In this document: piece by piece, positions 11,099 to 57,155 of the stretch
How positions within the stretch are numbered: position 1 is the first letter of the stretch
Layout: every line of letters starts with the position of its first letter
Assembly (NCBI GenBank): GCA_015152455.1
Contig: SUTY01000001.1
Span: forward strand, 5,807 to 69,806
DNA from: Cyanobacteria bacterium SIG32
GTDB lineage: Bacteria; Cyanobacteriota; Vampirovibrionia; Gastranaerophilales; Gastranaerophilaceae
Length of the DNA stretch: 64,000 bases
Reading direction: 5' to 3'
The notes under the pieces: model-generated
Seen by the model: only the letters and a program-made list of their open reading frames with translations
The model's database searches: none
Told to the model about the DNA's origin: nothing
Made by a program: the position numbers and the translations under genes

Positions 11099-11171
11099 AT
11101 GTAATCCTTATGAATGATATTCCTTAATTTTACTTGAAAAATAAATATAAAATTTGTATTATTATTATACC

Positions 11172-13379: not shown

Positions 13380-13398
13380 GAAGTGTTTTATATAACAC

Positions 13399-13424
13399 AT
13401 CGGAGCCTAAAGATAGACTCCGAT
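13399..13424. repeat. hairpin ATCGGAG-N12-CTCCGAT, near-identical copy of the pilin-gene terminator hairpin at 42489-42514
   Basis: ATCGGAGCCTAAAGATAGACTCCGAT versus ATCGGAGCCTAAAAATAGACTCCGAT (25 of 26 identical). Confidence 0.8.
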
Positions 13425-13534
13425 AGATTTATATATAGACAGACATAGCCTAATCTGCACTACTGAAATACCCAATTTAACGTTTTAAAATTTATGTGGA
13501 TAATCTTCAGGAATTTTCCAATTATTCATTTGGA

Positions 13535-13648
13535 TTAGTTTAGTACAGTATGCACGTTCTTGCCCCATAGGTTCTGTATAATTGCCGTTAATGTCGGAAT
13601 AGTCATTGCTGCAACAACACCAATGATTGCGAGGGTAATCAATACCTC
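13535..13648 (-). pseudogene. remnant of a type IV pilin-like gene (N-terminal helix only, no start codon)
   Basis: Minus strand reads EVLITLAIIGVVAAMTIPTLTAIIQNLWGKNVHTVLN-stop, directly fused to the GTGAYCAAG leader module. TAG TGA lie in frame upstream. Nucleotide-level similarity to 43560-43600 is high. Confidence 0.6.
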
Positions 13649-13693
13649 TTGATCACTTGGTCACTAAAACCCTGATCACTTCTTATCTTACTA
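13648..13693 (-). repeat. pilin leader/operator module, copy A: TAAGAT -10-like box then GAAGTGATCAGGGTTTTAGTGACCAAGTGATCAAG
   Basis: Aligns almost base for base with 43853-43898 (copy B) and partially with 42311-42344 (copy C). Confidence 0.7.
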
Positions 13694-13768
13694 TTTTTTT
13701 TAATTGATTGCAATAGTTAACAATTTTAACGTATTTGCAATATCAAAATTCCCTGTTAACATAGTGTT

Positions 13769-39167: not shown

Positions 39168-40157
39168 ATGTTATTAGTTATAGCTTTAATACTATTTGTG
39201 TTTGTAATTGGTTTATGTATTGGAAGTTTTTTGAATGTTGTAATATTGCGTTCATTAAGTGAAGAATCCATTGTATTTCCAGCTTCAAAATGTCCAAAAT
39301 GTCAGCATCCATTAAAATGGTGGCATAATATTCCAGTTCTTTCATATATTTTATTGAGAGGAAAGTGTGGATTTTGTAGTGAAAAAATCAGTATTCAATA
39401 CCCAATAATTGAGTTGGTGACTGGTGTTGCGTTTGTTTTAGTGTTTTTAAAATTTGGGATTTCTGTAAATACAATATTGGCTTGGATTATTACAAGTTTG
39501 TTTGTTGTTTTGGCAGGAACAGACTGGAAAGAAAAGGTTGTATTTGACGTACACACGTATGCATTAATTGGTGTTGGTTTATTTTGTGCAGTTTTAACAA
39601 CAGGCATGATTATATATGAATACACAACTTTGTACGGTCATTTTAATTACAATACACAATGGTTTGTAAGTAATCCTTTGACTGTGGCTTTACTTGGCAC
39701 AATTATTGGTTTTGTTGGAATGGAAATTATTTCAAGAATGGGCTATTTATTGGCTGGTACTAGAGCTTTTGGAGAAGGAGATTCTTTTATCGCTGCAGGA
39801 TTAGGTGCGATATTGGGTTGGAAAGCATTGTTGCCATTGTTGATTATAAGTGTTATTGTGCAAATACTTGCGATTTTGCCAATATTTATTAAAAAAGAAA
39901 TTGAGAATAAAAACTGGATGGTTATAATTTCATTTGGAGCCTTTGTTGCATATACAATTGCGTTTATGATGGCACAAAAATTTGGTTGGTTAGAAAACAT
40001 GGTTGCATATATTGCAAGTTCAATTGTGTTGGTAATTATCGGTGTGTTATGTTGTAGAGAAATTTTATCAAACATAAAAACTGATCCTGATAATAGAACA
40101 TATTTGCCGTTTGGACCAGCTTTGGTGTTTGCTGGATTTATACTTTTACTGGCATAA
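39168..40157 (+). CDS. pilD: prepilin peptidase (A24 family, PilD-like)
   Basis: N-terminal CIGSFLNVV, zinc-finger-like CPKCQHPL...CGFC, and two Asp motifs (AGTDWKE, FGEGDSF). Confidence 0.85.
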   Translation: MLLVIALILFVFVIGLCIGSFLNVVILRSLSEESIVFPASKCPKCQHPLKWWHNIPVLSYILLRGKCGFCSEKISIQYPIIELVTGVAFVLVFLKFGISVNTILAWIITSLFVVLAGTDWKEKVVFDVHTYALIGVGLFCAVLTTGMIIYEYTTLYGHFNYNTQWFVSNPLTVALLGTIIGFVGMEIISRMGYLLAGTRAFGEGDSFIAAGLGAILGWKALLPLLIISVIVQILAILPIFIKKEIENKNWMVIISFGAFVAYTIAFMMAQKFGWLENMVAYIASSIVLVIIGVLCCREILSNIKTDPDNRTYLPFGPALVFAGFILLLA

Positions 40158-42310: not shown

Positions 42311-42463
42311 CAGTGACCAAGAAATTAGTGATCAAGTGATCAAGAAAAATTCTCCTCCCCTTAGTGAATCAGTATGCGGTAGCTGAGGATAAGAAGTAAA
42401 ATCACCCGAATAATACTGTAGTCTGTTCCCTCCCCCCTTGAGGGGGAGGGTTAGGGAGAGGGG
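42311..42463 (+). repeat. pilin leader module, copy C (decayed, no gene): GTGACCAAG / GTGATCAAG / TGATCAAG repeats plus a GC-rich hairpin CCCTCCCCC-N-GGGGGAGGG and GGGAGAGGGG
   Basis: 42311-42344 CAGTGACCAAGAAATTAGTGATCAAGTGATCAAG; 42428-42463 CCCTCCCCCCTTGAGGGGGAGGGTTAGGGAGAGGGG. Homologous to elements of copy B but on the opposite strand. Confidence 0.65.
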
Positions 42464-42487
42464 TAAAAAATGTAAATAACAAAACAA

Positions 42488-42515
42488 AATCGGAGCCTAA
42501 AAATAGACTCCGATT
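42488..42515. terminator. terminator hairpin after the pilin-like gene (A-run / stem / T-run, usable on both strands)
   Basis: AAAATCGGAG-CCTAAAAATAGA-CTCCGATTTT. Confidence 0.6.
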
Positions 42516-42536
42516 TTATTATTATATCAAACCATT

Positions 42537-42556
42537 CAAAATGGTTTACCATTTTG
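42537..42556 (-). other. perfect 8-bp stem / 4-nt loop hairpin 4 nt downstream of the pilin stop codon
   Basis: Coding-strand CAAAATGG-TAAA-CCATTTTG. Confidence 0.8.
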
Positions 42557-42559
42557 GGC

Positions 42560-43702
42560 TTAATCACCTAAGCAAACCGCCCACCCACCGCTGCGGTTGC
42601 GGGCGTCGTAGTTCCATACCGTATCGTCGGAGTAGAAGTCGCGGACGTGAGCGCTGCTCTTAGCGGAAGAACCCTCCTCGCCTGACCACACCCAGAACGA
42701 AGGGCTAGGAAAGCCTAGAGAAGATCCTTTAGTTGGGTTGAATGCGATAGTATTACCATCATAGTTTGAGCCGTTGTCGGTTTTTTCTCCAACAATGTCA
42801 GTGTCATATAAATAATTTGCTATTGTAGCTAAATCTGACAACTGTGCCATTTTAGATGTACCACCACATGTTTCTGCTGCTTTTGCAAAGTAGTCGTCAC
42901 CTGGGTAACAGTAGTCAAGTCCGTATTTTTGCATATATGCTTGGTCTTCTGCGTCTGTTGATGTATATGTACTACTATTGCAAGCGTTCCATGTGTGTGC
43001 TGAATTAGCTTGGAATGGCATACCAAAACATGTACCGTCTATTTCAAACGCACAAGATGATCCACCAAGTGATTGTACGTTACCATTTGCTCTTAAATCT
43101 TTACCACTAACGTTTGGTGTTTTACCTGCAGATGTATCATATAGAATAGCTAAACAGTCACTACCAGTAATTGTATTTGAATAAGGATCTTGAGAACATT
43201 TTGGATTATATGCAATTAGTGCAGTAGTACCGTTTGCAAATTGTGTACCAATAATTTCTGTACCCCATTCATCTTGTCCAAAGTGTTTAGCTTTTTTAAC
43301 TTTTGTCATGTCAACAACTTCATTACCATAAGTTACTTCACTACTAAAACAATCTTGTAATTTATCGTTAGCACATATTTTAGTTGTTTTGAAGTTTTTA
43401 GCAAGTTCATTAACAAAACTTTCTGTAGTAGAGTGTCCTGCTAAAGTTGCATTAGCATTCATAACTCTCATGGCTTCAGTTAGTTTTCTTTCAAAAACAG
43501 TAGCTGCAGTACCCCAAGATTTTTCTTGGTAATTTGCAACAAGAGTTGGTATTGTCATTGCTGCAACAACACCGATAATTGCGAGGGTGATTAGAACCTC
43601 TGCCAAAGTAAAAGCAGATTTGCGATAGTTGGCACAATTGCCTACGTGCGTAGCACCCTCAGCTAACGTAAATGCTGCCCCCTCACCCTTACCCTCTCCC
43701 AT
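42560..43702 (-). CDS. type IV pilin-like protein with a long atypical leader and a C-terminal DUF1566 / Fibrobacter-paralogous-type (C-lectin-like) domain
   Basis: Prepilin signature KSA-FTLAEVLITLAIIGVVAAMTIPTL. The C-terminus FWVWSGEE...SGGWAVCLGD resembles YWSST...SVRCV-type domains. The coordinates use the in-frame ATG at 43702, which has no SD; the track ORF starts at TTG 43723. A better SD+ATG lies at 43805 but is 1 nt out of frame (see findings). Confidence 0.75.
   Translation of the reverse strand: MGEGKGEGAAFTLAEGATHVGNCANYRKSAFTLAEVLITLAIIGVVAAMTIPTLVANYQEKSWGTAATVFERKLTEAMRVMNANATLAGHSTTESFVNELAKNFKTTKICANDKLQDCFSSEVTYGNEVVDMTKVKKAKHFGQDEWGTEIIGTQFANGTTALIAYNPKCSQDPYSNTITGSDCLAILYDTSAGKTPNVSGKDLRANGNVQSLGGSSCAFEIDGTCFGMPFQANSAHTWNACNSSTYTSTDAEDQAYMQKYGLDYCYPGDDYFAKAAETCGGTSKMAQLSDLATIANYLYDTDIVGEKTDNGSNYDGNTIAFNPTKGSSLGFPSPSFWVWSGEEGSSAKSSAHVRDFYSDDTVWNYDARNRSGGWAVCLGD
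42575..42715 (-). other. G+C-rich, NNC-codon-rich 3' segment of the pilin-like CDS (DGR variable-region-like)
   Basis: 36/60 G+C in 42601-42660 versus 20/60 in 43201-43260. Codon runs are CAC GTC CGC GAC TTC TAC TCC GAC and AAC TAC GAC GCC CGC AAC CGC AGC, followed by GGTGGGTGGGCGG. Confidence 0.4.
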
Positions 43703-43754
43703 AGGGCGAGGGAATAATCCCAAAACGTCCGAAAGCCTTGCTAGGAGAGCGTTT

Positions 43755-43805
43755 CTACCCCCCCCCCAAGGTCTTAAAGCCAGTCATAGCTTCATTTTTT
43801 AACAT
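43755..43805 (-). CDS. short upstream ORF MLKNEAMTGFKTLGGG-stop with a strong SD, ending right after the G10 tract
   Basis: AGGAGATCGTAGT-ATG; ATG TTA AAA AAT GAA GCT ATG ACT GGC TTT AAG ACC TTG GGG GGG GGG TAG. It would fuse to the pilin frame with one G fewer. Confidence 0.45.
   Translation of the reverse strand: MLKNEAMTGFKTLGGG
43758..43767 (-). repeat. homopolymeric tract, G10 on the coding strand (C10 on plus)
   Basis: Counted directly: ...ctaCCCCCCCCCCaagg... Confidence 0.95.
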
Positions 43806-43852
43806 ACTACGATCTCCTATTCTGTTGGATCTTCCAACCTTAAAATATATTA

Positions 43853-43898
43853 CTTGATCACTTGGTCACTAAAACCTTGATCACTGCTTATCATACCA
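43853..43898 (-). promoter_or_regulatory. pilin leader/operator module, copy B: extended -10-like TGGTATGAT followed by AAGCAGTGATCAAGGTTTTAGTGACCAAGTGATCAAG
   Basis: Near-identical to copy A (13648-13693). Three direct GTGAYCAAG-type repeats, each containing a GATC/TGATCA core, begin about where the transcript would start. Confidence 0.55.
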
Positions 43899-43947
43899 TT
43901 TTTTTTATAGTTTTTAACGGAATTTACAAAACTTTATTTATTATTTG

Positions 43948-44673
43948 TTACAAATAATTTGCCAAGATATTTTTTACATAATTTTGAGTTTCTTCATAAG
44001 GAGGCACTCCGTCATATTTATCAACGGCTCCAGGCCCAGCATTGTACGCTGCAAGTGCTAAAATTACGTTACCATTGTATTTTTTAAGCATTGATTTTAA
44101 ATATCTAACTCCGCCGTCAACGTTTTGAACAGGGTTAAAAGCATCAGTTACCCCTAATCCTTTTGCAGTCGCAGGCATTAATTGCATCAATCCCATTGCT
44201 CCTGCTTTTGATTTTGCTTTTGGATTAAATCCAGATTCTTGTTGGATTAGAGCTTTAACTAATTTTTCGTCAACACCATGTTTTTTTGCAGTTTGTTCAA
44301 TCAAATTCATTATTTGGTGTTTGCTTGTGGGTTGAGTTGTACCAATTGCACTACTAACTGCAGTAGCTTGTGCTATTACATTATTCAGGCTCTCTGTTGG
44401 GTTTGTCTTTGCAATCTGTGCTCTAACCTTCATAGATTCAGGATTAAGTAATAAGCTACCAAATTTGTTAATATTTTGTGTGCTTGATAATACTTTTTCA
44501 AATGATTGTACATTAGGATTTGTCGGAGGTTGGATACTTTGCAAATTCTGTGCATTTTGCGTAGCTTGTGGTCCGTAAAAATTATCTACGTATCTGTTCA
44601 TTTGCGCAGCACGTTGCATAGCTGCTGCCTGACCTCCACTTTTTAGCATTCTTTGTATCATTTGTGAAAACAT
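43948..44673 (-). CDS. lytic transglycosylase (SLT domain) protein
   Basis: QESGFNP, GLMQLMP and AAYNAGPGAV motifs; Gln/Asn-rich N-terminal half. Confidence 0.8.
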   Translation of the reverse strand: MFSQMIQRMLKSGGQAAAMQRAAQMNRYVDNFYGPQATQNAQNLQSIQPPTNPNVQSFEKVLSSTQNINKFGSLLLNPESMKVRAQIAKTNPTESLNNVIAQATAVSSAIGTTQPTSKHQIMNLIEQTAKKHGVDEKLVKALIQQESGFNPKAKSKAGAMGLMQLMPATAKGLGVTDAFNPVQNVDGGVRYLKSMLKKYNGNVILALAAYNAGPGAVDKYDGVPPYEETQNYVKNILANYL

Positions 44674-44759
44674 AAATATCCTACCCTCAATTTTATTCTA
44701 CACGTTAGAACAGATATTTGTATCATATAAATTAAGGATTTTTCGATAAATGTCAAATA

Positions 44760-45809
44760 TTATTTGATAAACATACAATCGCCATAACTAAAAAATCTGT
44801 AACGATTTTCAATAGCTTCTTTATAAGCATCAAAAATAAACTCTTTTCCTGCTAATGCACTAACCAACATTAATAAAGTCGATTTTGGTAAGTGGAAATT
44901 TGTTATTAAATTATCGATAACTTTGAATTCATAAGGTGGGTAAATGAATAACCTTGAAGCGCTTTTACACGCCTTTATTTCACCAAATTGTTGAAATGCA
45001 GTTTCTAAAGTTCTTACAGTTGTTGTCCCCACTGCAATAATTTTTTTACCTTGAGATTTTGCTTTATTTATAGTGTCAGCAGTTTCTTGAGTGATTTCAA
45101 ATGTTTCTGAGTGCATTTTGTGATCTAAAATATTTTCACATTTTACTGGTCTGAATGTTCCCATACCAACATTCAAAGTTACGTATGCAATCTCTACACC
45201 TTTAGCTTTTAATTTTTCAAGAATTTCCTCAGTAAAATGCAAGCCTGCCGTTGGTGCTGCAACAGAACCCTCATCTTTTGCATAAACAGTTTGATAACGA
45301 TCTTTATCGAAATTTTTGATATCTTCAGTTTGAAGTCTTCTTTCAATATATGGTGGCAACGGAAGGTTACCTACTTTATGTAAAATATCAAACAAATCAC
45401 CATTATGAATTAACTCAACTAGCCATTCACCGTCATCTTCTAAACGCTTAATTGGTTTCACACTTAAATCTGCACTAATGGTTATAACAGTATCAGGTTT
45501 AATTCTTTTTGATGGCTTAATCAAGCAAGACCAAATATCAGAACCCTCACTTTGCGCTTCCAATAAAAACACTTCGATTTTTGCACCAGTTTCTTTTGTG
45601 CCATAAAGCCTTGCAGGAAGAACCTTTGTGTCGTTTAATACTAAAAGCGAATTTTCGTCAATAAAATCGACTATATCGTAAAAATGCTTATGCTCAATCG
45701 AACGTTGTTCTCGATTAAGTACAAGCATTTTAGAATTATCTCTTTTATCTGCCGGCATTTGAGCAATAAGTTCTTCCGGCAATTCATAATCAAAGTCTGA
45801 AACTAACAA
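44760..45809 (-). CDS. queA: S-adenosylmethionine:tRNA ribosyltransferase-isomerase
   Basis: MLVSDFDYELPEELIAQ start; PLPPYI and AAPTAGLHFT motifs. Confidence 0.93.
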   Translation of the reverse strand: MLVSDFDYELPEELIAQMPADKRDNSKMLVLNREQRSIEHKHFYDIVDFIDENSLLVLNDTKVLPARLYGTKETGAKIEVFLLEAQSEGSDIWSCLIKPSKRIKPDTVITISADLSVKPIKRLEDDGEWLVELIHNGDLFDILHKVGNLPLPPYIERRLQTEDIKNFDKDRYQTVYAKDEGSVAAPTAGLHFTEEILEKLKAKGVEIAYVTLNVGMGTFRPVKCENILDHKMHSETFEITQETADTINKAKSQGKKIIAVGTTTVRTLETAFQQFGEIKACKSASRLFIYPPYEFKVIDNLITNFHLPKSTLLMLVSALAGKEFIFDAYKEAIENRYRFFSYGDCMFIK

Positions 45810-45814
45810 CGGAA

Positions 45815-46897
45815 TTACTCCTTGTTATCAATTTTCTTTGCATTTTGAAGATCAATATCGTCAACTTTTTGTGCTTTTTGAGCTTCTTCAATATCCATTT
45901 GCTTGTTAACTATAACAGTTTGAACGATTTGGATTAAATTACTTGTTACAAGGTATAACAATACACCAGCAGGGATTGGGATAATCACAAATGTCGCAAT
46001 AATCATAATTGGCATAAATGTTCCCATAGATTTTTGCAACGCTGCCTGAGTTGGGTCTTGAGGTGTATTTTTTGAAGTTGCCATCATAACTTTTTGAGAA
46101 ATAAACATTGTCAAACCAAATAATACAATAAGCAACAATACATCAAAGTGGAATTTTTGTTCAACTTCAACTGATGGGAATGATGCAGCAAGAATTTCAC
46201 CTTTACGTTCAAAAGTTACTTTTTCTGTTTCTTTTGTATTTATGTCTGTAATAATGACATCAGCTTTTTCAATATTTTGAAGTTGGCTAAATTTCAAAGA
46301 TAAATTATCCAGACTGATTTTAAAATCAATAGCTTCACCTGGAACCAACTCACCTTGAATTTCTAACGCTTGGTTGGGTTTTGTAATTTTAACATTTTGT
46401 AGAGTTTCTTCCGGTAAATAAACAGTTGCCATTTTACCAAGAATAAACTTGTCATATTTAGATGCGCCCATAACGCCGTCATTAGATATTCCTGCAGATG
46501 CTCTTAAAGTTGTATCAAGACGATTTACGAATAAAAACGGTGCATTACCAGCCATTTGAATAAATTGAGGACTCATTAATGCTGAATATAACAAAATGAA
46601 TATCGGCATTTGAATTAATAATGGCAAACAACCACCCATTGGGTTAAACTTATGTTCTTTATAGAACTCCATAAGTTTTTGTTGCATAACTTGTGGGTTA
46701 TTTTTATATCTGTCTTGAATTGCTTTTAGTTTTGGTTGAAGTGTTTGCATCATTCTCATTGAGCGTTGTTGAGAAACATTCAACGGCCACATGCAAAGTC
46801 TTACGATAATTGTCAAAGTTATAATTGCCCATCCGTAATCACCTACGATAGACGCTAATTTACCTAGTAATTCTATTGTTAATGTTGTAAAATCCAA
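45815..46897 (-). CDS. yidC: membrane protein insertase YidC
   Basis: KLKAIQDRYKNNPQVMQQKLMEFYKEHKFNPMGGCLPLLIQMPIF core. Confidence 0.85.
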   Translation of the reverse strand: MDFTTLTIELLGKLASIVGDYGWAIITLTIIVRLCMWPLNVSQQRSMRMMQTLQPKLKAIQDRYKNNPQVMQQKLMEFYKEHKFNPMGGCLPLLIQMPIFILLYSALMSPQFIQMAGNAPFLFVNRLDTTLRASAGISNDGVMGASKYDKFILGKMATVYLPEETLQNVKITKPNQALEIQGELVPGEAIDFKISLDNLSLKFSQLQNIEKADVIITDINTKETEKVTFERKGEILAASFPSVEVEQKFHFDVLLLIVLFGLTMFISQKVMMATSKNTPQDPTQAALQKSMGTFMPIMIIATFVIIPIPAGVLLYLVTSNLIQIVQTVIVNKQMDIEEAQKAQKVDDIDLQNAKKIDNKE

Positions 46898-47047
46898 TGT
46901 CCCTAATCCTTATATTATCTCTCTTTATACGTTGCAATCGTATCATAAGCAATGTTGATAAGCAAGTTTAATTAATGTAAATATTTATTTTAGTAAACTA
47001 AAGTTTTTATAAAACATTCCGATAAAAAGATTGTAGCGAGGTATTAA

Positions 47048-47593
47048 ATGAAGAAAATATTAATAGTGTTATGTTTATTAATTTTTGGTTTGCAAGGAAT
47101 TTGTTCACAAGCTGACGAAAAAAGAATAATTGGTAAACAAGGCGTATCACGAGGAATAATGGTTTATATTCCAAAACATGAAGATAGTGCCAAAATGAAA
47201 CAAGCGTTTGGAGAATGGACGAAAGCAACAAATGGCAAAATAACTTTCAAATTTATTTCTTCTTCTCAGGCTGCGCAGATAAGAGTTTATTTTGTTGATA
47301 CTGTTCAAAATTATGATAAAAGTAATGCGGTAGGTTTGGCTGGGTCTTCACATGTTGTAACTGGTGCTATTAGACGTACTGATATCCAAATCGCTAATCG
47401 TCCATTATATACTCAGTCTAAAATACAAACTCCAGAGGAGCGTTATTCAACTATGGTTCATGAAATAGGACATGCACTTGGTTTAGGTCATTCCAAAGAT
47501 GAAGCCAGTATTATGTATCCATTTAATAGTCCAAAAAGAAAAATTACGCAGGAAGATGTTGATTTAATCTATCAAATTTATAAGTTTAAATAA
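47048..47593 (+). CDS. secreted matrixin-like zinc metalloprotease (M10)
   Basis: Signal peptide; HEIGHALGLGHS zinc motif followed by a Met-turn (IMYP). Confidence 0.75.
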   Translation: MKKILIVLCLLIFGLQGICSQADEKRIIGKQGVSRGIMVYIPKHEDSAKMKQAFGEWTKATNGKITFKFISSSQAAQIRVYFVDTVQNYDKSNAVGLAGSSHVVTGAIRRTDIQIANRPLYTQSKIQTPEERYSTMVHEIGHALGLGHSKDEASIMYPFNSPKRKITQEDVDLIYQIYKFK

Positions 47594-47594
47594 C

Positions 47595-47630
47595 AAAAAA
47601 AAGACTCACCTAAAGTGAGTCTTTTTGTTT
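47595..47630. terminator. bidirectional intrinsic terminator (protease gene / tRNA-Pro)
   Basis: AAAAAAAAGACTCAC-CTAAA-GTGAGTCTTTTTGTTTT. Confidence 0.75.
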
Positions 47631-47634
47631 TAAA

Positions 47635-47711
47635 TGGTCGGGATGACACGATTTGAACGTGCGACCCCCTCGTCCCAAGCGAGGTGCGCTACCAAGCTGC
47701 GCTACATCCCG
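47635..47711 (-). tRNA. tRNA-Pro (anticodon TGG), CCA encoded
   Basis: Manual cloverleaf: CGGGATG / GCGC-AGCTTGGTA-GCGC / CCTCG-CTTGGGA-CGAGG / GCACG-TTCAAAT-CGTGT / CATCCCG-A-CCA. Confidence 0.9.
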
Positions 47712-47735
47712 AACTGTAATTGGGGGTACTCGTTC

Positions 47736-47764
47736 ATTCTAGAATAAACAAATTTAATCGTCAA
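47736..47764 (-). promoter_or_regulatory. promoter for tRNA-Pro: TTGACG, 17 nt, TAGAAT
   Basis: Minus strand TTGACGATTAAATTTGTTTATTCTAGAAT, about 25 nt upstream of the tRNA 5' end. Confidence 0.55.
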
Positions 47765-47794
47765 GTGTTTTTTTTTATAAATAAAAAACAATAA

Positions 47795-47947
47795 TTAATC
47801 ATCCGTACAATTTTCATCTATAAGTTCAAAACTATCGTGTCCGGCAAAGCAAACAGGGCACTGCCAATCCTGAGCCAAGTCATCAAAAAGAGTCCCTTCT
47901 TTTGACTCATCATAAATCCAATTACATACTAAACATCTAAAACGCAT
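47795..47947 (-). CDS. rubredoxin (50 aa; below the ORF-track size cutoff)
   Basis: Own translation: MRFRCLVCNWIYDESKEGTLFDDLAQDWQCPVCFAGHDSFELIDENCTDD. It has CxxC...CPxC motifs and RBS AAAGGAGAA. Confidence 0.85.
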   Translation of the reverse strand: MRFRCLVCNWIYDESKEGTLFDDLAQDWQCPVCFAGHDSFELIDENCTDD

Positions 47948-47981
47948 GATTTTTCTCCTTTCGTGTTATAATATTTGTATT

Positions 47982-48404
47982 ATGAAACATACATTTGAAC
48001 AAAAAGTTTTTTATGCAGATACAGATGCTTATAGTGTTGTCTGGCATGGTTCTTATCTTCGCTGGATGGAAATGGGTAGAGTTATGTGGTGCGAAGAACA
48101 AGGTTATAGCCTGAATGCTCTAAAAGCTCAGGATATAGTCTTGCCTGTTACTAATATCAATATCAAATACAAAGCATCTGCAATGCTTGAAGATGTTGTT
48201 ATTATCGAAACTTGGATTGAAAAATACAACCCTCTATCGGTTACTTTCCATCAGGTAATAAAATCTAAAGATACAGGCAGGATTTTTACAGAAGCCTCTG
48301 TTGATGTAGTTGCACTTCATGAAGATGGAAAACTCTACAGAAGAATGCCTGAAATTTTAACAAAAACATTTGAAAGGGCTACTAAATGTCCTCAACTCGT
48401 TTAA
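47982..48404 (+). CDS. acyl-CoA thioesterase (4HBT / YbgC-like hotdog fold)
   Basis: Start trimmed to MKHTFEQKVFYADTDAYSVVWHGSYLRWME, the characteristic 4HBT N-terminus. Confidence 0.75.
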   Translation: MKHTFEQKVFYADTDAYSVVWHGSYLRWMEMGRVMWCEEQGYSLNALKAQDIVLPVTNINIKYKASAMLEDVVIIETWIEKYNPLSVTFHQVIKSKDTGRIFTEASVDVVALHEDGKLYRRMPEILTKTFERATKCPQLV

Positions 48405-49120
48405 ACAAATATATTGCATCTTCTGGCTTGTGTTCCAGACGTAAAGCTGACGAACTCATTGAACAAGGCGTTGTTTCTGTAAATGGTAAAAAAGTTACAG
48501 AATTGGGCTTTTTAGTAGGCGAAAAAGATAAAGTTTTTGTTAATCAAAAACTTATAAGACCTGTTCGTCATGAATATTACAAATTCTACAAACCAGCTGG
48601 TTATATAACAACTTGTGATGATGAAAAAGGGCGTAAAACAATCTACGATTTATTGCCAGAAAGTATGTATAACTTAAAACCAGTCGGAAGATTGGATAAA
48701 GATTCAACTGGACTCTTGTTATTAACTAATGACGGCGATTTAATTAATGAATTAACGCATCCGTCTGTTAAAGTTCCTAAGGTTTATATAGTTTCTGTTG
48801 ATGCAAGAATGCATCCGCACGAATTTGAACAAATGGCAAAAGGTATTGAAATTGAACCAGGTAAAATTGCTTATGCAGATGTTACTTTATTAGAGGCCGA
48901 TAATAAGCACACAATGATGCAAATAGTTTTATATCAAGGCATGAATCGTCAAATTCGTAAGATGATTGAATATTTTGGATATGAAGTTAAATCATTGAAA
49001 CGTATTCAGCACGCGACAATTCAAATAGACGGACTTCGCAGAGGTGAATTTAAACCAATTAAACCTCAGCAAATCAAAGAATTAAGAAACTTTTTAAATA
49101 GGATTTCTAAAAATGCGTAA
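48386..49120 (+). CDS. pseudouridine synthase, RsuA/RluB family (S4 domain + catalytic domain)
   Basis: RLNKYIASSGLCSRRKADELI S4 motif; GRLDKDSTGLLLLTNDG catalytic Asp motif. Confidence 0.85.
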   Translation: MSSTRLNKYIASSGLCSRRKADELIEQGVVSVNGKKVTELGFLVGEKDKVFVNQKLIRPVRHEYYKFYKPAGYITTCDDEKGRKTIYDLLPESMYNLKPVGRLDKDSTGLLLLTNDGDLINELTHPSVKVPKVYIVSVDARMHPHEFEQMAKGIEIEPGKIAYADVTLLEADNKHTMMQIVLYQGMNRQIRKMIEYFGYEVKSLKRIQHATIQIDGLRRGEFKPIKPQQIKELRNFLNRISKNA

Positions 49121-49679
49121 GATCGCAATTACAGGTAATATAGCATCAGGTAAATCTGAAGTCCAAAAGATATTGATCTCTCTTGGTTACAAAGTTTTGG
49201 ACACAGATGTTGTGGGGCATGAATTGCTACATAACAATACAGAAATTAAAAACGCATTTATAGAATATGATATTTTAGAATATGATGATATTTCAAGAGA
49301 AAAACTAGGTAAAATAGTTTTTAATGATAAAAAATTATTAGATAAATTAAACTCAATTATTCATCCGCAAATAAAAAACAAAATAGAGGAATTTTTCCTT
49401 GAAAACAAATTTGAAGAAAAAGTTTTCGTTGCAATTCCTTTATTATTTGAAGCAAATATGCAGGATATGTTTGATGAAATTGTATTTGTATATGCAAATG
49501 ATGAGTTGAGATTAAAACGTTTGATGAAGCGGAATGGTTTTGATGAAGATTATGCAAAACAGAGATTAAACTCACAAATGTCGCAAAATGAAAAAATGAA
49601 AAAATCACAAATCATTATTAGAAATGAAGGCGGGTTGGAAGAATTAAAACAAAGTGTTATTAGAACTTTATGCGGCTAA
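49113..49679 (+). CDS. coaE: dephospho-CoA kinase
   Basis: IAITGNIASGKS P-loop, IHPQI motif; 188 aa. Confidence 0.85.
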   Translation: MRKIAITGNIASGKSEVQKILISLGYKVLDTDVVGHELLHNNTEIKNAFIEYDILEYDDISREKLGKIVFNDKKLLDKLNSIIHPQIKNKIEEFFLENKFEEKVFVAIPLLFEANMQDMFDEIVFVYANDELRLKRLMKRNGFDEDYAKQRLNSQMSQNEKMKKSQIIIRNEGGLEELKQSVIRTLCG

Positions 49680-50639
49680 CCATTCGTTCATTCTTACAAA
49701 GCCGTCTAATTTTTCAGTGTTCATGCTCCTTCTAATTCTTTTCACTTGGTTACTTGTATTACCTTCGATAACATAGAAAGTGCCGTCATTGTTTACGCTT
49801 TCAACAATCCCAACGTGTCCTGAGCCGTCAGAATATTTCAAAATCATTAAATCTCCTGCTTGAGGTTTGTATCCTGAAGATGCTTTTGAATAAACACCAG
49901 CCTGTTGAGCCTGAGCTCTTATTTCCTGAGAAGATGAGCTATAACCAAAAGTTGCATTGTTTTGTGAATTTTGTCCTCTACCGTAACACCAGGAAACAAA
50001 GGATGCGCACCAAGGTGCTCCGTTTTCAACTCCATTTCTGTATTCATTAATTTGTGAAGAATTATTAGAAGATCCGTTTTCTTTTACGCCTATTTGAGAT
50101 CTTGCAACGCTAATTGCATTTGTTACAGCAGAATTACCTGATAAGTTGGTTCTTCTTGTTGAACTGCCAGTTGTTGTAGATGAAGTTTGTCTTAAACTGC
50201 TTGTTTGAGAAGATGTATTTGTTCTTGTTGTTTCAGTATTTGAACTCGTTGTTTCTGTATTGGAACTTGTTGTTCGTGTAGTGCCTGTAGTCGATTTTGG
50301 TAGTGTTAAAAATCCAAAAATATTTTCATCACTATATCTGTTGCCAACAAAACTTGGTAATAAAGGAGAAAAGAAATGTGGCATTGTAAACTGAGGTGTG
50401 AAACTTAATAATCCCATATAATTTGTGTTAAATGGATTATTTAATTGAGGTATATATGAAAAATTTGTAGGCGGAGTAAATCCAAATACATTGGCATTTA
50501 AAACATCATACCTTGGAACTCCTAATGCAAATATTGAAGACGCTAAAGATGAAAAAGTTGGTGATAGCGCACTTATTCCACCATTATAAAATGATGGATA
50601 TTGTGGCATATAACAATTGTTTAAACCCCAAACAGTCAA
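49668..50639 (-). CDS. CHAP-domain peptidoglycan amidase/peptidase with an aromatic/Pro/Asn-rich N-region and a Thr/Ser-rich linker; no signal peptide seen
   Basis: C-terminal WCASFVSWCY (Cys) and GHVGIVESV (His) CHAP motifs. TTG start after AAGGGG. Linker TTRTTSSNTETTSSNTETTRTNTSS. Confidence 0.75.
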   Translation of the reverse strand: MTVWGLNNCYMPQYPSFYNGGISALSPTFSSLASSIFALGVPRYDVLNANVFGFTPPTNFSYIPQLNNPFNTNYMGLLSFTPQFTMPHFFSPLLPSFVGNRYSDENIFGFLTLPKSTTGTTRTTSSNTETTSSNTETTRTNTSSQTSSLRQTSSTTTGSSTRRTNLSGNSAVTNAISVARSQIGVKENGSSNNSSQINEYRNGVENGAPWCASFVSWCYGRGQNSQNNATFGYSSSSQEIRAQAQQAGVYSKASSGYKPQAGDLMILKYSDGSGHVGIVESVNNDGTFYVIEGNTSNQVKRIRRSMNTEKLDGFVRMNEWLAA

Positions 50640-50716
50640 AATCGTCCCCTTAAATTTTTCCTCTTATATATATAAAGAGTTTTTTCAAAAGGGAATTGCT
50701 TAATTGTAACAGATTG

Positions 50717-51052
50717 TTAAAACATTATAATTGATGCTTCAGCTTTACCAGAATCTATGTCGTCAAAAGGTTTGTGTTCATCTTCAGTAATTTCATAATC
50801 ATTTTCTGTAAGATCAAAAGTTTTAATTAACAAATCTTTTACGTTGCAATTTGTGTCAAAAAGATAGAATTTGTTTACGTTTTTCATATATAAGCCAAAT
50901 TCCTTATCACTTTTTAACAGTTTTAAAAAATGTGCTTTTAAGATAGCTTTGTTAGAACCGTCAAATGAAAAATCTTCCATAGCAGAATGTTCTTTGATGG
51001 TTTCAAGTAACTTGTAAGGTTCAATCCATTTTCTGATAATTAAATTTAGCAT
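50717..51052 (-). CDS. small acidic hypothetical protein (111 aa)
   Basis: Its ATG overlaps the ABC exporter stop by 7 nt. Acidic C-terminal half (TENDYEITEDEHKPFDDIDSG). No recognised domain. Confidence 0.5.
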   Translation of the reverse strand: MLNLIIRKWIEPYKLLETIKEHSAMEDFSFDGSNKAILKAHFLKLLKSDKEFGLYMKNVNKFYLFDTNCNVKDLLIKTFDLTENDYEITEDEHKPFDDIDSGKAEASIIMF

Positions 51053-52875
51053 ATTTCCTCTTGTTTTTTAAATTGCATTTCATATAAATGTCTATATTTG
51101 CCGTTATTAATTTGCATAAGCTCGTCGTGTGTACCAAGTTCAGCCAATTCACCTTCATTAATAACCGCAATTCTATGCGCATTTTTAATAGTTGTTAGTC
51201 TGTGAGCGATAACAAATACTGTTTTATTTGCTATTAAGTTGTCCAAAGCCTTTTGTACGATTGCTTCTGATTTATTATCAAGAGCTGAAGTTGCCTCATC
51301 TAGTATAACAATAGGAGCATCTTTTAACATAGCTCTCGCAATTGCAACACGTTGTCTTTGACCGCCAGAGAGAGTTGTTCCTCTTTCACCGACAAAAGTA
51401 TCTAAACCATCATCAAGTGTAGCTATGAACTCATCTAAGTGCGCCATCTTAACAACTCTATCCAAATCAGCTTGAGTTGCATTTTTGTTACCCATCATAA
51501 TATTATCTCGAATTGTTCCAGAGAATAAATAGTTATCTTGGAATACAAAAGCGATATTGCTTCTTAATGAGTTCAAATCAAAGTTTCTTATATCAACACC
51601 ATCAAATTCTATAGAACCACTTTTAACGTCGTAAAATCTAGGGATAAGGTTTACAATTGTACTCTTACCACCGCCAGAATTCCCAACAAGGGCAATTGTT
51701 TCGTTTTTCTGAACTTTCAAGTTTATATTTTTCAACACAGGAACATCAGGTTCATATTCAAATGAAATATTATTGAAATGTATTTCTTTATCAAAACCTT
51801 TCAACTGAATTGGATTTTCTTTGTTTCTAATGTGAGGAACAAGATCAAATAATTCAAATACACGTCCCATTGCTACGAATGTCGATTGTAAACTTGTTAG
51901 AGTATTACCAAGTGTTTTGACTGGTTTGTAAAGAAGTAATAATGATGTTACAAAAGACATCATGCTACCTGCAGTCAACTGTCCAGTTAAAATCAGGTGA
52001 GTACCATACCAGAACACAAGAGCAATACCGACAGAACAGATTGAATACATAATTGGTGACATCCAACCTACACGTTTACAAAGTGTCATTGTTAGGTTAA
52101 ATTGATCTTTAATTTGTTTTTTAAATTTGTTGTTTTGGTCTTGTTGAAGACTATACGCTGTCATAATTTTATTGCCAGCAAATGTTTCGTTGAAGTTTGT
52201 TGTCATGTTCCCGCCAACAACCATTGAAGCATTAGAAACCGCTTTAATTTTCTTTCTGATAAAAGTAACAGGCGTAATTGCAAGTCCCATAACGGTAACA
52301 CCCACAATTGCAAGTTGCCAAGAGTTATACAACAATACGGCTACTAATCCGACAATCCCAAATATTGTTGAAATAAAGCTATTTAGAGTTGAAATAATTG
52401 TCTTGGTTGCAGCATCCGGATCTGATAAAAATCTTGTTAGTACCAGACCTGATGAGTTAACATCATAAAATTGTGGATCTAATGTCGTTAATTTTTCAAA
52501 TAGGCTAATTTTTAATAGATTAGAAATTTTGTTGCCTGTCCAAGTTGTTAAATAATAACTGATGTATCTCAAAATCCCTTGGAATATTGCAAATAATACA
52601 ATTGCAACTGGAATTATAGCGGCAAAACTCGACTGAATCTGTAATTCTTGATCCATGAACGTGTAAGTTGAAGTTGGATTTCCGTTAATAACCAAATCCA
52701 TATAAGGCTTGATAGAGAACGCTACAACACCATCTAATAAACCTAAAGGTATGGCTACCAATAAGTTTAAAATAATTCTACCCATAAATGGTTTCACAAA
52801 GGGTGCGATTCTGTTTACAAGATAACCATATCTGAATGCATCTTTAGATACCGTATTGCTTAATTTATATTCCAT
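51046..52875 (-). CDS. ABC transporter, fused permease/ATPase (MsbA / lipid A exporter-like)
   Basis: Six-TM N-domain; GNSGGGKST Walker A, LSGGQRQRVAIARA signature, ILDEATSALD Walker B. ATG at 52875 after GAGGGAG. Confidence 0.85.
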   Translation of the reverse strand: MEYKLSNTVSKDAFRYGYLVNRIAPFVKPFMGRIILNLLVAIPLGLLDGVVAFSIKPYMDLVINGNPTSTYTFMDQELQIQSSFAAIIPVAIVLFAIFQGILRYISYYLTTWTGNKISNLLKISLFEKLTTLDPQFYDVNSSGLVLTRFLSDPDAATKTIISTLNSFISTIFGIVGLVAVLLYNSWQLAIVGVTVMGLAITPVTFIRKKIKAVSNASMVVGGNMTTNFNETFAGNKIMTAYSLQQDQNNKFKKQIKDQFNLTMTLCKRVGWMSPIMYSICSVGIALVFWYGTHLILTGQLTAGSMMSFVTSLLLLYKPVKTLGNTLTSLQSTFVAMGRVFELFDLVPHIRNKENPIQLKGFDKEIHFNNISFEYEPDVPVLKNINLKVQKNETIALVGNSGGGKSTIVNLIPRFYDVKSGSIEFDGVDIRNFDLNSLRSNIAFVFQDNYLFSGTIRDNIMMGNKNATQADLDRVVKMAHLDEFIATLDDGLDTFVGERGTTLSGGQRQRVAIARAMLKDAPIVILDEATSALDNKSEAIVQKALDNLIANKTVFVIAHRLTTIKNAHRIAVINEGELAELGTHDELMQINNGKYRHLYEMQFKKQEEIC

Positions 52876-52966
52876 ATTCTCCCTCAATCAATAAATATAC
52901 CAAACAATTATTACATAAATATACTTAAATTTCAAAATTGTAAAGAGTATCTCTAAAATATTTAAT

Positions 52967-52996
52967 AAAAAAAGAACCTTGGCGAAGGTTCTTTTA
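52967..52996 (-). terminator. intrinsic terminator after tRNA-Leu
   Basis: Minus strand AAAAGAACCTT-CGCC-AAGGTTCTTTTTTT. Confidence 0.7.
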
Positions 52997-53002
52997 TAAA
53001 TT

Positions 53003-53084
53003 TGGGCCCGGAGAGACTCGAACTCTCACACATTGCTGCGCTAGATCCTAAGTCTAGTGCGTCTACCAATTTCGCCACAGGCCC
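53003..53084 (-). tRNA. tRNA-Leu (anticodon TAG), class II long variable arm, CCA not encoded
   Basis: GGGCCTG TG GCG AAATTGGTAGA CGC A CTAGA-CTTAGGA-TCTAG CGCAGCAATGTGT GAGAG-TTCGAGT-CTCTC CGGGCCC A. Confidence 0.85.
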
Positions 53085-56378: not shown

Positions 56379-56504
56379 AAAGTTTTTAAAAAAATCATCC
56401 AAATGCTTGACACATTTTGAAAAAATTGATACTATAATCTCATTAGTAAAGACAAAAAATTGTTCATAGCTTTATTAGTTAAAAAAAAGAAAGGTGAAAA
56501 GATT

Positions 56505-57155
56505 ATGACAAAAAGATTCGGTTTTACTTTGGCAGAAGTATTGATCACATTAGGTATCATTGGTGTAGTTGCTGCTATGACTATCCCAACATTGATTTCA
56601 AACACAAATGGTGCACAGTTCAAAACAGCTTACAAAAAAGCGTTATCAACTTTGAACCAAGCAGTTCTTATGAATGTTGCAATGGATGACACAGATTTTT
56701 CAGGTATGGTAGCTGCTGATGCAGATGCTGGTACTAAAATCGCAGATTTCTTAGGCGCTCGTTTACAAACAGCATCTGACATTACTGATCAATATGATAA
56801 TGAAACAGCTCCAGCTTTGACAACTTACAAACTTGATGGTGCTGATGTAACTGTTCCTCAGACAACTGCTATCGATACAGTTTATGCTTTTGCTGATGGT
56901 ACAGCATTTGGTTTCAGCGCTGCTGCAGCATCTTGTACTAAAACAGCTCCTTGCTACGGTTACATTGACGTAAACGGTACTGCTGGTCCTAACCAACAAA
57001 CAGAATGTGATGCTGGTACTGGTACAACTGGTGATGATGGTGTTGCTTGTGAAGTTTCAGCTTCTGCAGTTAAAGACATCTTCCCAGTATTATTCTATGG
57101 TCAAACTGTTGAACCAGCTTCAGACGCAGCTAAAGCAGTATTATTCGGTAAATAA
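56505..57155 (+). CDS. type IV pilin-like protein with a short canonical leader
   Basis: MTKRFG-FTLAEVLITLGIIGVVAAMTIPTL. ATG at 56505 after AAAGGTGAAAAG. Codon usage looks like that of a highly expressed gene. Confidence 0.8.
   Translation: MTKRFGFTLAEVLITLGIIGVVAAMTIPTLISNTNGAQFKTAYKKALSTLNQAVLMNVAMDDTDFSGMVAADADAGTKIADFLGARLQTASDITDQYDNETAPALTTYKLDGADVTVPQTTAIDTVYAFADGTAFGFSAAAASCTKTAPCYGYIDVNGTAGPNQQTECDAGTGTTGDDGVACEVSASAVKDIFPVLFYGQTVEPASDAAKAVLFGK

Follow-up and report, generated by a model that had tools for sequence, protein, structure and literature searches.

A probable diversity-generating retroelement target in a prepilin-type gene of Cyanobacteria bacterium SIG32 (Gastranaerophilales)

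The prepilin-type gene and its surroundings

The stretch of DNA analysed here (the window; 64,000 nucleotides) belongs to the metagenome-assembled genome (MAG) of Cyanobacteria bacterium SIG32, a member of the Gastranaerophilales, relatives of the cyanobacteria that do not photosynthesise and are common in the guts of animals and humans. We know of no organism of this type that has been grown in pure culture. On the minus strand, a prepilin-type gene (type IV pilin or type II secretion system (T2SS) pseudopilin-like) occupies positions 42560–43723, with an open reading frame (ORF) of 387 amino acids from the TTG at 43723; GenBank places the start at the ATG at 43702, which yields a protein of 380 amino acids listed for Cyanobacteria bacterium SIG32 as “type II secretion system protein” (MBE7708856.1). 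Its prepilin N-terminal cleavage/methylation motif, with KSA before and FTLAEVLITLAIIGVVAAMTIP after the cleavage point (43553–43624, minus strand), is recognised by Pfam PF07963 (E = 3.6e-6, score above the cut-off) as well as by TIGR02532 and is followed by a hydrophobic helix, the arrangement of type IV pilins and T2SS pseudopilins. A long N-terminal helix spans residues 33–83 of the structure model, and the PDB matches of the pilin-family profile are pilin N-terminal helices only. After processing of the class III signal, at a cleavage site of the form G/A before FTLAE, the protein has approximately 350 residues. The enzyme expected, from its sequence, to carry out this processing is a prepilin peptidase (Peptidase A24; 39168–40157, plus strand; Pfam PF06750, E = 2e-35, and PF01478), which is encoded 2.4 kb from the pilin gene.

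The C-terminal globular domain (42563–43021, minus strand; amino acids 228–380 of the 380-amino-acid protein) is modelled by AlphaFold with a pLDDT of 96.9, and its last three strands carry the candidate variable region (VR) of a diversity-generating retroelement (DGR). In a preliminary description of this locus, this part of the protein had been labelled DUF1566. The label was not confirmed: Pfam, including Lcl_C (PF07603), gave no such match at E ≤ 1 in the pilin or in 24 relatives and recognised only the N-terminal methylation motif. No Pfam family was matched by the C-terminal domain, NCBIfam returned no DUF1566 match for the protein or its family, and Foldseek searches of full-length and domain models against PDB and BFVD yielded nothing below E = 0.001. 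The best among the weak Foldseek matches of the domain were the Bd2740 C-terminal domain, snake C-type lectin-like proteins, and viral DUF1566 and Fib_succ_major proteins. A weak Lcl_C/DUF1566 match, below the cut-off (E = 3.4e-4), was found in the target protein of the related locus L015, which has another VR type and to which the pilin has no significant BLASTP similarity. A C-lectin label for the pilin tip, at which the structure models may hint, is regarded here as unconfirmed.

Downstream of the gene lies its intrinsic terminator (42483–42520, minus strand), consisting of a 17-bp stem and a run of T. Upstream, a short ORF (43755–43805, minus strand) starts with ATG (43805–43803) after AGGAG, ends in TAG (43757–43755) and contains a G10 tract (43767–43758). 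With G9 instead of G10, it would run on into the pilin ORF, and an in-frame leader N-terminus of this kind is present in the homolog P0018; judged from these sequences, the tract is a possible phase-variation switch. No significant match to known RNA families was obtained with Rfam around the pilin gene. The 5′ leader, the gene, the terminator and a G+C-rich element at the 3′ side (42351–42465) make up a repeated “pilin cassette” (42312–43957, minus strand), whose extent follows from blastn comparisons with L005 and with L018 (89% over 1.65 kb).

Composition, boundary and adenine-linked variation of the 3′ end

Among all 140-nt stretches of the window, 42576–42715 is the G+C maximum, with 0.629 at a window mean of 0.325 and a standard deviation of 0.050. 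The abrupt change in composition along the gene that had been reported earlier was reproduced upon recounting (36 of 60 G+C at 42601–42660 versus 20 of 60 at 43201–43260), and the two runs of eight NNC codons at 42649–42626 and 42613–42590 are present with the very codons quoted, as is the G-rich 3′ end of the gene, GGTGGGTGGGCGG, followed by TAA (42562–42560). In the VR, 22 of 45 codons are of the NNC type, compared with 42 of 305 in the upstream part of the gene (Fisher p = 3.5e-7), where NNC runs reach four at most; codon G+C amounts to 0.607 in the VR and to 0.366 in the remainder of the gene. Composition and codon pattern of the VR are far beyond chance.

The VR proper was assigned to 42584–42700 (minus strand) by DNA and protein alignments, Fisher tests against independent template repeats (TRs) and a residue-set test. 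It covers about the last 115 bases of the gene, in keeping with the 100–150 bp of VRs at gene 3′ ends, with the scaffold continuing to the stop at 42560, and comprises approximately 16 hypervariable codons set into the invariant scaffold FWVWSGEE x SS x K xx A xx R x F x S xx T x W xxxx R xx S xx. In the alignment of eleven close homologs, approximately 300 amino acids are near-identical and approximately 16 discrete C-terminal columns hypervariable; at these columns, 166 of 174 residues fall within the set that is reachable from AAY codons, and the eight exceptions (E, K) are confined to two columns, with seven of them in a single column reading V/E/K/A.

The adenine test of the VRs relied on five surrogate TRs, which are homologous, non-cognate and were found independently in related Gastranaerophilales. 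When six near-identical window-type VRs are compared with TR_L009, variation is seen at 35 of 43 A columns, but at only 14 of 82 non-A columns (p = 2.6e-12), and it coincides with the A columns of all five TRs; substitutions at template adenines are observed with surrogate, non-cognate templates. The variability that had been proposed as a check is found as anticipated—strain and paralog variants differ almost solely at positions 1–2 of the NNC codons, and these positions coincide with adenines of homologous TRs. The family also includes the paralog L006, with a decayed, AT-rich C-terminus that has the look of an unrefreshed region, and L005, whose VR contains an in-frame stop (TAA) and has changed towards A at several positions.

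On the 3′ side, the mutagenised stretch is bounded by an invariant IMH-like end, TGGGCGGTTTGCTTAGGTGAT plus TAA (42560–42583, minus strand), which is identical in five of six copies; in these, TGGGCGGTTTGCTTAGGTGAT stands directly after the last variable codon and, by its sequence, would qualify as a GC-rich IMH. The TRs of L008 and L010 share the end ...GCGGTTTGCTTAGG, and sister TRs part from their VRs only after ...TTAGG, in the manner of IMH*/IMH-like ends. Next to the stop codon, there is a hairpin of putative role (CAAAATGG-TAAA-CCATTTTG; 42537–42556, minus strand), which has the 8-bp stem and 4-nt loop attributed to it in the preliminary description, but lies 3 nt, not 4 nt, past the stop codon. 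Four of six close copies conserve this hairpin and two lack it, and an overlapping alternative hairpin competes with it in the predicted fold. The hairpins or cruciforms of DGR targets have a GC-rich stem of 7–10 bp and a 4-nt GRNA loop and are located 4–34 bp from the VR (PMC3240598). The SIG32 hairpin, whose AT-rich stem has three G–C pairs out of eight and whose loop reads TAAA, does not match this consensus and was rejected as a DGR cruciform of that type.

Retroelement components and paralogous copies

Within the 64 kb, neither blastn at word size 7 nor searches with the predicted TR core and the IMH-like end (three mismatches each) revealed a second TR-like copy, and tblastn queries taken from related cassettes, namely their reverse transcriptase (RT) and Avd proteins, detected neither protein, in agreement with the absences reported before. 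Since TR, RT and Avd are all lacking from the window, the pilin copy would be a remote target, as had been claimed, and a DGR-clade RT is indeed encoded on another contig of the same MAG (MBE7710013.1; motifs IGNLTSQ and YVDD), its link to the pilin contig depending on the metagenomic binning of the SIG32 MAG. This RT is apparently intact and recurs on 10 contigs; its identity amounts to 69% with the RT of the complete L007 cassette and to 83% with P0177. At the loci of P0177, the nearest RT relative, a pilin target is present and TR and Avd are not visible in the contigs examined; no SIG32-named protein occurs among the best 120 Avd homologs, and no RT relatives of P0387 were found in viral contigs.

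The cognate TR of the window VR was absent from the window and from the GTDB, metagenome and viral scans. The predicted TR 27-mer, run against one-genome-per-species GTDB contigs and metagenome contigs, retrieved no TRs other than those of sister sub-types, shorter by two codons and with another last variable codon. No metagenome contig matched a predicted TR 37-mer carrying the window-type 3′ end, and both the general TR 27-mer and the predicted 5′-half pattern were without match in viral contigs.

In related Gastranaerophilales, complete DGR cassettes (RT, Avd, TR) adjoin homologous pilin targets. The cassette of L007 is composed of an RT, a pilin with N_methyl motif and VR, a TR and Avd, that of L003 has the order VR, Avd, TR, RT, and cognate TR/VR pairs are also contained in L008, L010 and L015. 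Mismatches between TR and VR fall on TR adenines in 18 of 20 cases in L003, 24 of 26 in L008, and 21 of 23 in both L010 and L015; bAvd was found in L003, L007, L010 and L015. No RT, TR or Avd is located nearby on the contigs of the close homologs P0006, P0007, P0008, P0013, P0377 and P0380, and four window-type copies have none of the three in the 10 kb on either side. Contigs of the RT/Avd homologs P0177, P0198, P0225 and P0357, from the same sample series, were discarded as candidates, having other VR types or no TR.

Among the matches to the pilin, the best bear the name Cyanobacteria SIG32, and the related loci that were retrieved stem from Gastranaerophilales-type MAGs. In the SIG32 genome, at least three full pilin paralogs of at least 90% identity are found at unlinked loci, each with its own VR; the paralogs in the MAG include P0374, P0375 and the partial P0373, and the VR is different in each full copy. 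L019, a syntenic copy that stems from another sample, matches the window without any difference at positions 43500–53008 (9.5 kb of flank), and all 111 differences between the two lie within 42486–43478. In the VR, TR-A columns account for 22–23 of 26 differences (p = 1e-8 to 1e-10). Approximately 72 differences affect the gene body too, in mosaic blocks common to other paralogs, and synteny ends just after the pilin gene. Given these gene-body differences, the difference between the two VRs may stem from paralog recombination or assembly switching instead of homing in place. Part of the variation at the pilin locus is paralog recombination or assembly switching between paralogs and not the work of a DGR.

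Origin of the pattern and relation to known systems

The adenine-specific pattern, the canonical cassettes of the relatives, and the RT and paralogs in the same MAG are observed directly, and together they strongly support the preliminary claim of a surface pilin whose tip carries a DGR-diversified VR; we consider it quite probable that 42584–42700 is the VR of a DGR target. By this mechanism, a TR elsewhere in the genome would be transcribed, and the DGR RT, together with Avd, would turn the transcript into cDNA, misincorporating at template adenines; the cDNA would then replace the VR as far as the invariant GC-rich 3′ end. Randomisation of approximately 16 AAY-derived codons could generate some 10^18 variants or more, and the fold-determining scaffold would be reset at every round of replacement, which would explain a G+C island within a genome of 32.5% G+C. 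We infer that a cognate TR exists in the SIG32 genome and that homing into the window pilin copy is still going on; the protein is a putative pilus adhesin with the VR as its binding face.

Alternatively, the VR could be a fossil, in which a past DGR wrote the pattern, the TR of this sub-type was lost, and only ordinary mutation and recombination act today. The failure to find the cognate TR in scans that did return sister sub-type TRs would fit this account, as would the RT-ortholog loci without visible TR or Avd and the decay that does occur in the family, exemplified by L005 (in-frame TAA, changes towards A) and L006 (AT-rich C-terminus). Yet G+C in the VR has stayed at 61%, with C retained in synonymous third positions, despite the 32.5% G+C of the genome, and among five copies the non-A columns are almost invariant and the A columns approximately 50% different, which is expected from repeated resetting by a template, whereas decay would resemble L006. 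Considering further that the MAG retains a DGR-clade RT, which is apparently intact and recurs on 10 contigs, and that the collections scanned for the TR are incomplete for these goat-gut samples, we judge a fossil VR to be unlikely. Far less credible still, and rejected here, is the alternative raised in the preliminary description that the island is a G+C-rich mosaic segment acquired horizontally from a high-GC organism. Only the abrupt composition jump speaks for it; the G+C-rich island and the same invariant scaffold are common to more than 5000 homologs of the pilin, obtained in one search, and to related loci from the same low-GC lineage, no high-GC homolog matching the full length of the island was found, and its variable columns track TR adenines.

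It is likewise very improbable that the VRs are produced by cassette shuffling only, i.e., by gene conversion or recombination among pilin paralogs without any retroelement. Such a process is suggested by L019, which is identical over 9.5 kb and yet differs by the mosaic in the gene body, with synteny broken after the gene, and by the repetition of the 1.65-kb cassette with conserved flanks in the genome; an assembly artefact of a multi-copy gene may, however, account for some of the mosaic. Shuffling can move VRs, but it cannot create their pattern, with positions 1–2 varying at TR-adenine columns, third-position C fixed and residues limited to the AAY-derived set, and the relatives hold cognate TR/VR pairs. 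Its model would be pilE/pilS of Neisseria, where antigenic variation of pilin draws on a fixed repertoire of silent cassettes and is accompanied by homopolymer phase variation. The SIG32 pilin shares with this system a pilus subunit diversified in its exposed C-terminal part, multiple paralogs, partial or complete, that would exchange segments and a homopolymer near the start by which expression could be switched, but its hypervariable codons bear the signature of a retroelement and not of silent-cassette origin. Recombination is best seen as a layer added to the DGR, not as an alternative to it. It is conceivable, and put forward tentatively, that in gut Gastranaerophilales one large-pilin family combines hypermutation of the tip by a DGR acting in trans, segment exchange between paralog cassettes and an on/off switch at the poly-G of the leader, with recombination and phase switching read from assemblies only. 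In such an arrangement, the DGR may serve several dispersed paralogs and have its own parts dispersed, in line with an RT locus without visible TR or Avd.

Among described DGRs, that of Legionella pneumophila, with the target LdtA, belongs to category “d”/CLec2 VRs (DUF1566, DUF823, Fib_succ_major; Wu et al. 2018, PMC5758913). Like LdtA, the SIG32 pilin would be surface-exposed and have its last ~45 residues diversified by a chromosomal, non-phage DGR, and its VR scaffold is of the same general style (W-S-x-x-E ... R/F ... C near the end). Resemblance to this class extends to the weak best Foldseek hints of the pilin (DUF1566, Fib_succ_major) and to the second Gastranaerophilales cassette, L015, with a pilin target and its weak Lcl_C/DUF1566 match. 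Unlike the lipoprotein LdtA, the carrier is prepilin-type, with a class III signal peptide and no Pfam DUF1566 match, several dispersed paralogs are present per genome and the TR was not found in the scans. Remote targets are known from Treponema denticola, where, according to PMC5758913, one RT and a known TR serve TvpA and seven remote targets; these are, as in SIG32, unlinked genes without adjacent RT, TR or Avd, but they encode lipoproteins of the FGE-sulfatase C-lectin type, whereas the SIG32 target domain is without Pfam family. Bordetella phage BPP-1 (Mtd) has in common with the SIG32 pilin the adenine-specific transfer from TR to a VR at the 3′ end of an ORF, the GC-rich invariant 3′ boundary and an 8-bp/4-nt hairpin within 4–34 bp downstream (PMC3240598). 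It differs in that its target is a phage tail fibre with a single adjacent VR and in that its hairpin type has a GC-rich stem and a GRNA loop (PMC3240598), compared with 3/8 G–C pairs and TAAA in SIG32. In a DGR survey of MAGs, the GspG-type pilin domain is among the rare, “scarcely represented” VR-holding domains; pilin-type targets were, thus, caught by an automated survey, but are listed only, without description of family, paralogy or lineage (PMC11661182). Our literature search found no paper joining DGRs with Melainabacteria, Gastranaerophilales or prepilin.

The DGR mechanism is already known; the pilin family is large, largely undescribed and present in several scattered copies per genome. 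To our knowledge, DGRs are the sole targeted protein hypermutation in prokaryotes, and few roles are known for their cellular, non-phage targets. With a prepilin-type target, a pilus or pseudopilus with a diversified tip is suggested, i.e., variable adhesion or recognition. Since the variable domain is without Pfam family, annotation pipelines give the genes of this family only the label “type II secretion system protein” and miss their hypervariability, which also disrupts the assembly of metagenomes and the tracking of strains at the pilin loci. If the dispersed architecture with remote targets is true, the family would be a well-populated example for studying how DGRs recognise targets far from their template; if the layered variation is true, the pilin adhesin would be all that sets otherwise clonal cells apart, the 9.5 kb of flank showing 0 differences.

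Pilin gene and its variable C-terminus

The pilin ORF (42560-43723, minus strand) encodes 387 aa from a TTG codon or 380 aa from ATG 43702, the latter form being identical to GenBank entry MBE7708856.1 ('MAG: type II secretion system protein [Cyanobacteria bacterium SIG32]'; 70,354-nt contig). The prepilin N-terminal cleavage/methylation motif (PF07963, E=3.6e-6; TIGR02532) is its sole Pfam/NCBIfam match, and a PDB search with the pilin-family profile returned matches to pilin N-terminal helices only. The gene is set in ordinary chromosome: ruvA lies immediately downstream, and the neighbourhood comprises dnaA, an SLT transglycosylase and a sigma factor (all Pfam-confirmed), queA and yidC (Pfam labels taken from the 100%-identical flank of the syntenic copy L019), and a prepilin peptidase (Peptidase A24, 39168-40157). 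A second, shorter prepilin-type gene (56460-57155, plus strand, 231 aa) contains the N_methyl motif, its C-terminus not being VR-like.

The preliminary description had proposed a variable region (VR) of a diversity-generating retroelement (DGR) at the 3′ end of the gene, pointing to a compositional switch (36/60 G+C versus 20/60) and two runs of eight NNC codons (42649-42626 and 42613-42590), all of which were reproduced. Among all 140-nt stretches of the whole window, mean 32.5%, G+C peaks precisely at 42576-42715 (0.629, six standard deviations over the mean). NNC codons account for 22/45 in the VR stretch; the upstream part of the gene has 42/305 (p=3.5e-7), and its longest run is four. This composition and codon island is real and not due to chance.

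More than 5000 homologs of the protein were found, the top matches bearing Cyanobacteria SIG32 names and the fetched related loci deriving from Gastranaerophilales-type MAGs. Eleven close homologs are near-identical across the first ~300 residues, while ~16 discrete hypervariable columns in the last ~50 interrupt the invariant scaffold FWVWSGEE x SS x K xx A xx R x F x S xx T x W xxxx R xx S xx WAVCLGD. Of the 174 residues at the variable columns, 166 fall within the 15-amino-acid set obtainable from an AAY codon via adenine changes; the other eight (E, K) occur in two columns, seven of them in a single V/E/K/A column, as would be expected from a GAA or AAA template codon. In DNA alignments, the differences within the VR (42584-42700, minus strand) are at codon positions 1 and 2, with the third-position C fixed.

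The C-terminal domain (aa 228-380) was modelled with a pLDDT of 96.9, and Foldseek gave no match below E=0.001 in PDB and BFVD; the best, non-significant matches were the Bdellovibrio Bd2740 C-terminal domain, snake C-type lectin-like proteins, the CD72 CTLD, a viral DUF1566 protein and Fib_succ_major proteins. The DUF1566 label initially given to the pilin is unconfirmed; neither the protein nor 24 relatives yielded a Pfam DUF1566/Lcl_C match. The VR scaffold resembles the class termed CLec2 or category 'd' by Wu et al. (PMC5758913), of which it is a putative member.

Template repeats, reverse transcriptase and dispersed targets

A template repeat (TR) core, TGG(AAC)4CGC(AAC)2AGC, was predicted from the VR alignment and scanned against GTDB (one genome per species) and metagenome contigs. 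This resulted in six loci, every one Gastranaerophilales-type and with a true TR. The complete cassette of L007 has the order RT (RVT_1), 360-aa pilin with N_methyl motif and VR, TR, bAvd, while L003 is arranged as VR, Avd, TR, RT, and L008, L009 and L010 as target, TR, Avd. A further cassette, L015 (3004-6125; pilin with N_methyl motif, bAvd, TR, RT), originates from the same metagenome as a close homolog and has a different VR type, its pilin target giving a weak Lcl_C/DUF1566 match. As L015 is a second complete DGR type, at least two VR domain types occur on pilins in Gastranaerophilales.

In cognate TR/VR pairs, 18/20, 24/26, 21/23 and 21/23 mismatches are at TR adenines, the few others being at the 3′ boundary, like IMH versus IMH*. 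Given this adenine specificity, homologous pilin C-termini of the lineage are genuine DGR targets. No TR among those recovered is cognate to the window sub-type; all are shorter by two codons and terminate in ...CAG GCG versus ...TGG GCG. These sister-type TRs serve as a template not derived from the window-type VRs. When six window-type VRs, those of the window, L001, L002, L005, L018 and L019, were compared with the TR of L009, 35 of 43 A-aligned columns varied versus 14 of 82 others (p=2.6e-12); the other four TRs gave p between 1e-11 and 7e-11.

The preliminary statement that template copy, RT and Avd are absent from the window held over the 64 kb searched. An RT in the same MAG, encoded on another contig, fills half of this gap. 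This protein, MBE7710013.1 ('reverse transcriptase [Cyanobacteria bacterium SIG32]'), has the DGR-typical motifs IGNLTSQ and YVDD and is 69% identical to the L007 RT and 83% to P0177, an RT from loci containing fabH, RT, a toxin-antitoxin pair, a pilin target and dnaN. On the P0177 contigs (L011-L014; e.g., L012 119-3593), the RT adjoins a HigB/Gp49-like toxin-antitoxin pair and the pilin target, whose VR retains many AAC codons and which is preceded by a 600-nt spacer with two ~100-nt direct repeats; these contigs show neither a TR nor an Avd. Metagenome and viral contig scans gave no TR cognate to the window sub-type.

Three further SIG32 proteins, encoded on other contigs, cluster with the window pilin at 90% identity (MBE7709440.1, MBE7709477.1 and MBE7709909.1, the last being partial), and every full-length SIG32 paralog carries a VR of its own. 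Within ±10 kb of four window-type copies, no RT, Avd or TR was found. These copies are dispersed remote DGR targets, and in this they are like those of the Treponema DGR, a documented case of remote targets of non-phage DGRs (PMC5758913).

Repeated cassette and flanking elements

Paralogs share a repeated cassette (42312-43957, 1.65 kb, 89% to L018) that includes a conserved 5′ leader. Its 3′ G+C-rich element at 42351-42465 (ccctctccctaaccctccccctcaaggggggagggaac) is an imperfect inverted repeat, and the 5′ leader has a similar stretch (ccctcgccctatgggagagggtaagggtgaggggg) around 43660-43700. The leader peptide (43600-43690, minus strand) contains a duplicated prepilin motif (AAFTLAEGATHVGNCANYRKSAFTLAEV) that is seen again in many family members; the SIG32 paralog P0374 lacks exactly the 20 residues that separate the two FTLAE repeats. 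At about 13562-13702 (minus strand), a cassette remnant comprising the conserved 5′ leader and the first ~30 codons (…TLAEVLITL…), accompanied by a terminator-like piece (13386-13444), sits between a putative RelA/SpoT-like gene (11154-13379; named from ORF reading) and the next gene.

The G-rich end of the VR and the 8-bp/4-nt hairpin (42556-42537) described initially are present, except that the hairpin begins 3 nt, not 4 nt, past the stop codon. It is conserved in 4/6 close copies; however, whereas the published DGR hairpin consensus has a GC-rich 7–10 bp stem and a GRNA loop (PMC3240598), only 3/8 pairs are G-C here and the loop is TAAA. Fold prediction prefers an overlapping alternative hairpin, and the true terminator of the pilin gene lies at 42483-42520.

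A short ORF in region 43755-43818 (minus strand) starts at ATG 43805-43803, 8 nt past AGGAG, and ends at a TAG straight after a G10 tract (43767-43758). With G9, translation from this ATG would continue into the pilin ORF and yield the N-terminus MLK.EAMTGFKTLGGGRNALLARLSDVLGLFPRP..., a form observed in homolog P0018. Among other copies, L006 and L019 have G10, L018 has A+G9, and L012 has G9 in frame. The tract may be a slipped-strand phase switch, the window copy being 'off' for this ATG.

Refreshed or formerly active target

L019 is the same pilin gene from another JGI sample, with rubredoxin, M10 peptidase, yidC, queA, SLT and pilin as shared context. While window 43500-53008 shows 0 differences, all 111 differences are confined to 42486-43478; 26 of these are in the VR, and 22-23 coincide with an adenine column of the TRs (p=1e-8 to 1e-10). 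A comparison of strain variants had been proposed in the preliminary description. Between window 42486-43478 and L019 9286-10528, ~72 further differences affect the gene body in blocks common to other paralogs, and synteny stops just past the terminator (dnaA in the window, a glycosyltransferase in L019). This mosaic and the end of synteny therefore indicate paralog gene conversion/recombination or assembler switching between multi-copy genes, and the VR difference may have arrived within an exchanged segment instead of arising by in-place homing. The window version is not a one-off chimera, as the same sequence was assembled on three JGI contigs (P0376).

The VR might also be a fossil of a formerly active DGR and no longer refreshed, as the missing cognate TR and Avd would suggest. 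However, 61% G+C with C at synonymous sites within an AT-rich genome favours recent homing, and among five copies the non-A columns are near-invariant while A columns differ at about half of the sites. Furthermore, L006 and L005 show the appearance of unrefreshed copies. We regard a fossil as improbable. The decaying VR copy of L006 (3672-3853) has an AT-rich C-terminus in NNT codons of native composition; in that of L005 (10899-11082), one variable codon reads TAA in frame, alongside several A-ward changes.

The proposal of a remotely targeted DGR VR on a pilin is thus upheld by the adenine-column variation, the cassettes of relatives, and the RT and paralogs in the MAG; allowing for uncertainty about present activity, we consider it probable. 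The window pilin belongs to a multi-copy target family, in which it is a remote member. A full-text literature search joining DGR terms with Melainabacteria, Gastranaerophilales or prepilin found no paper. While the DGR mechanism is already known, the pilin carrier family, the lineage, and the dispersed and possibly multi-layered variation are little described.
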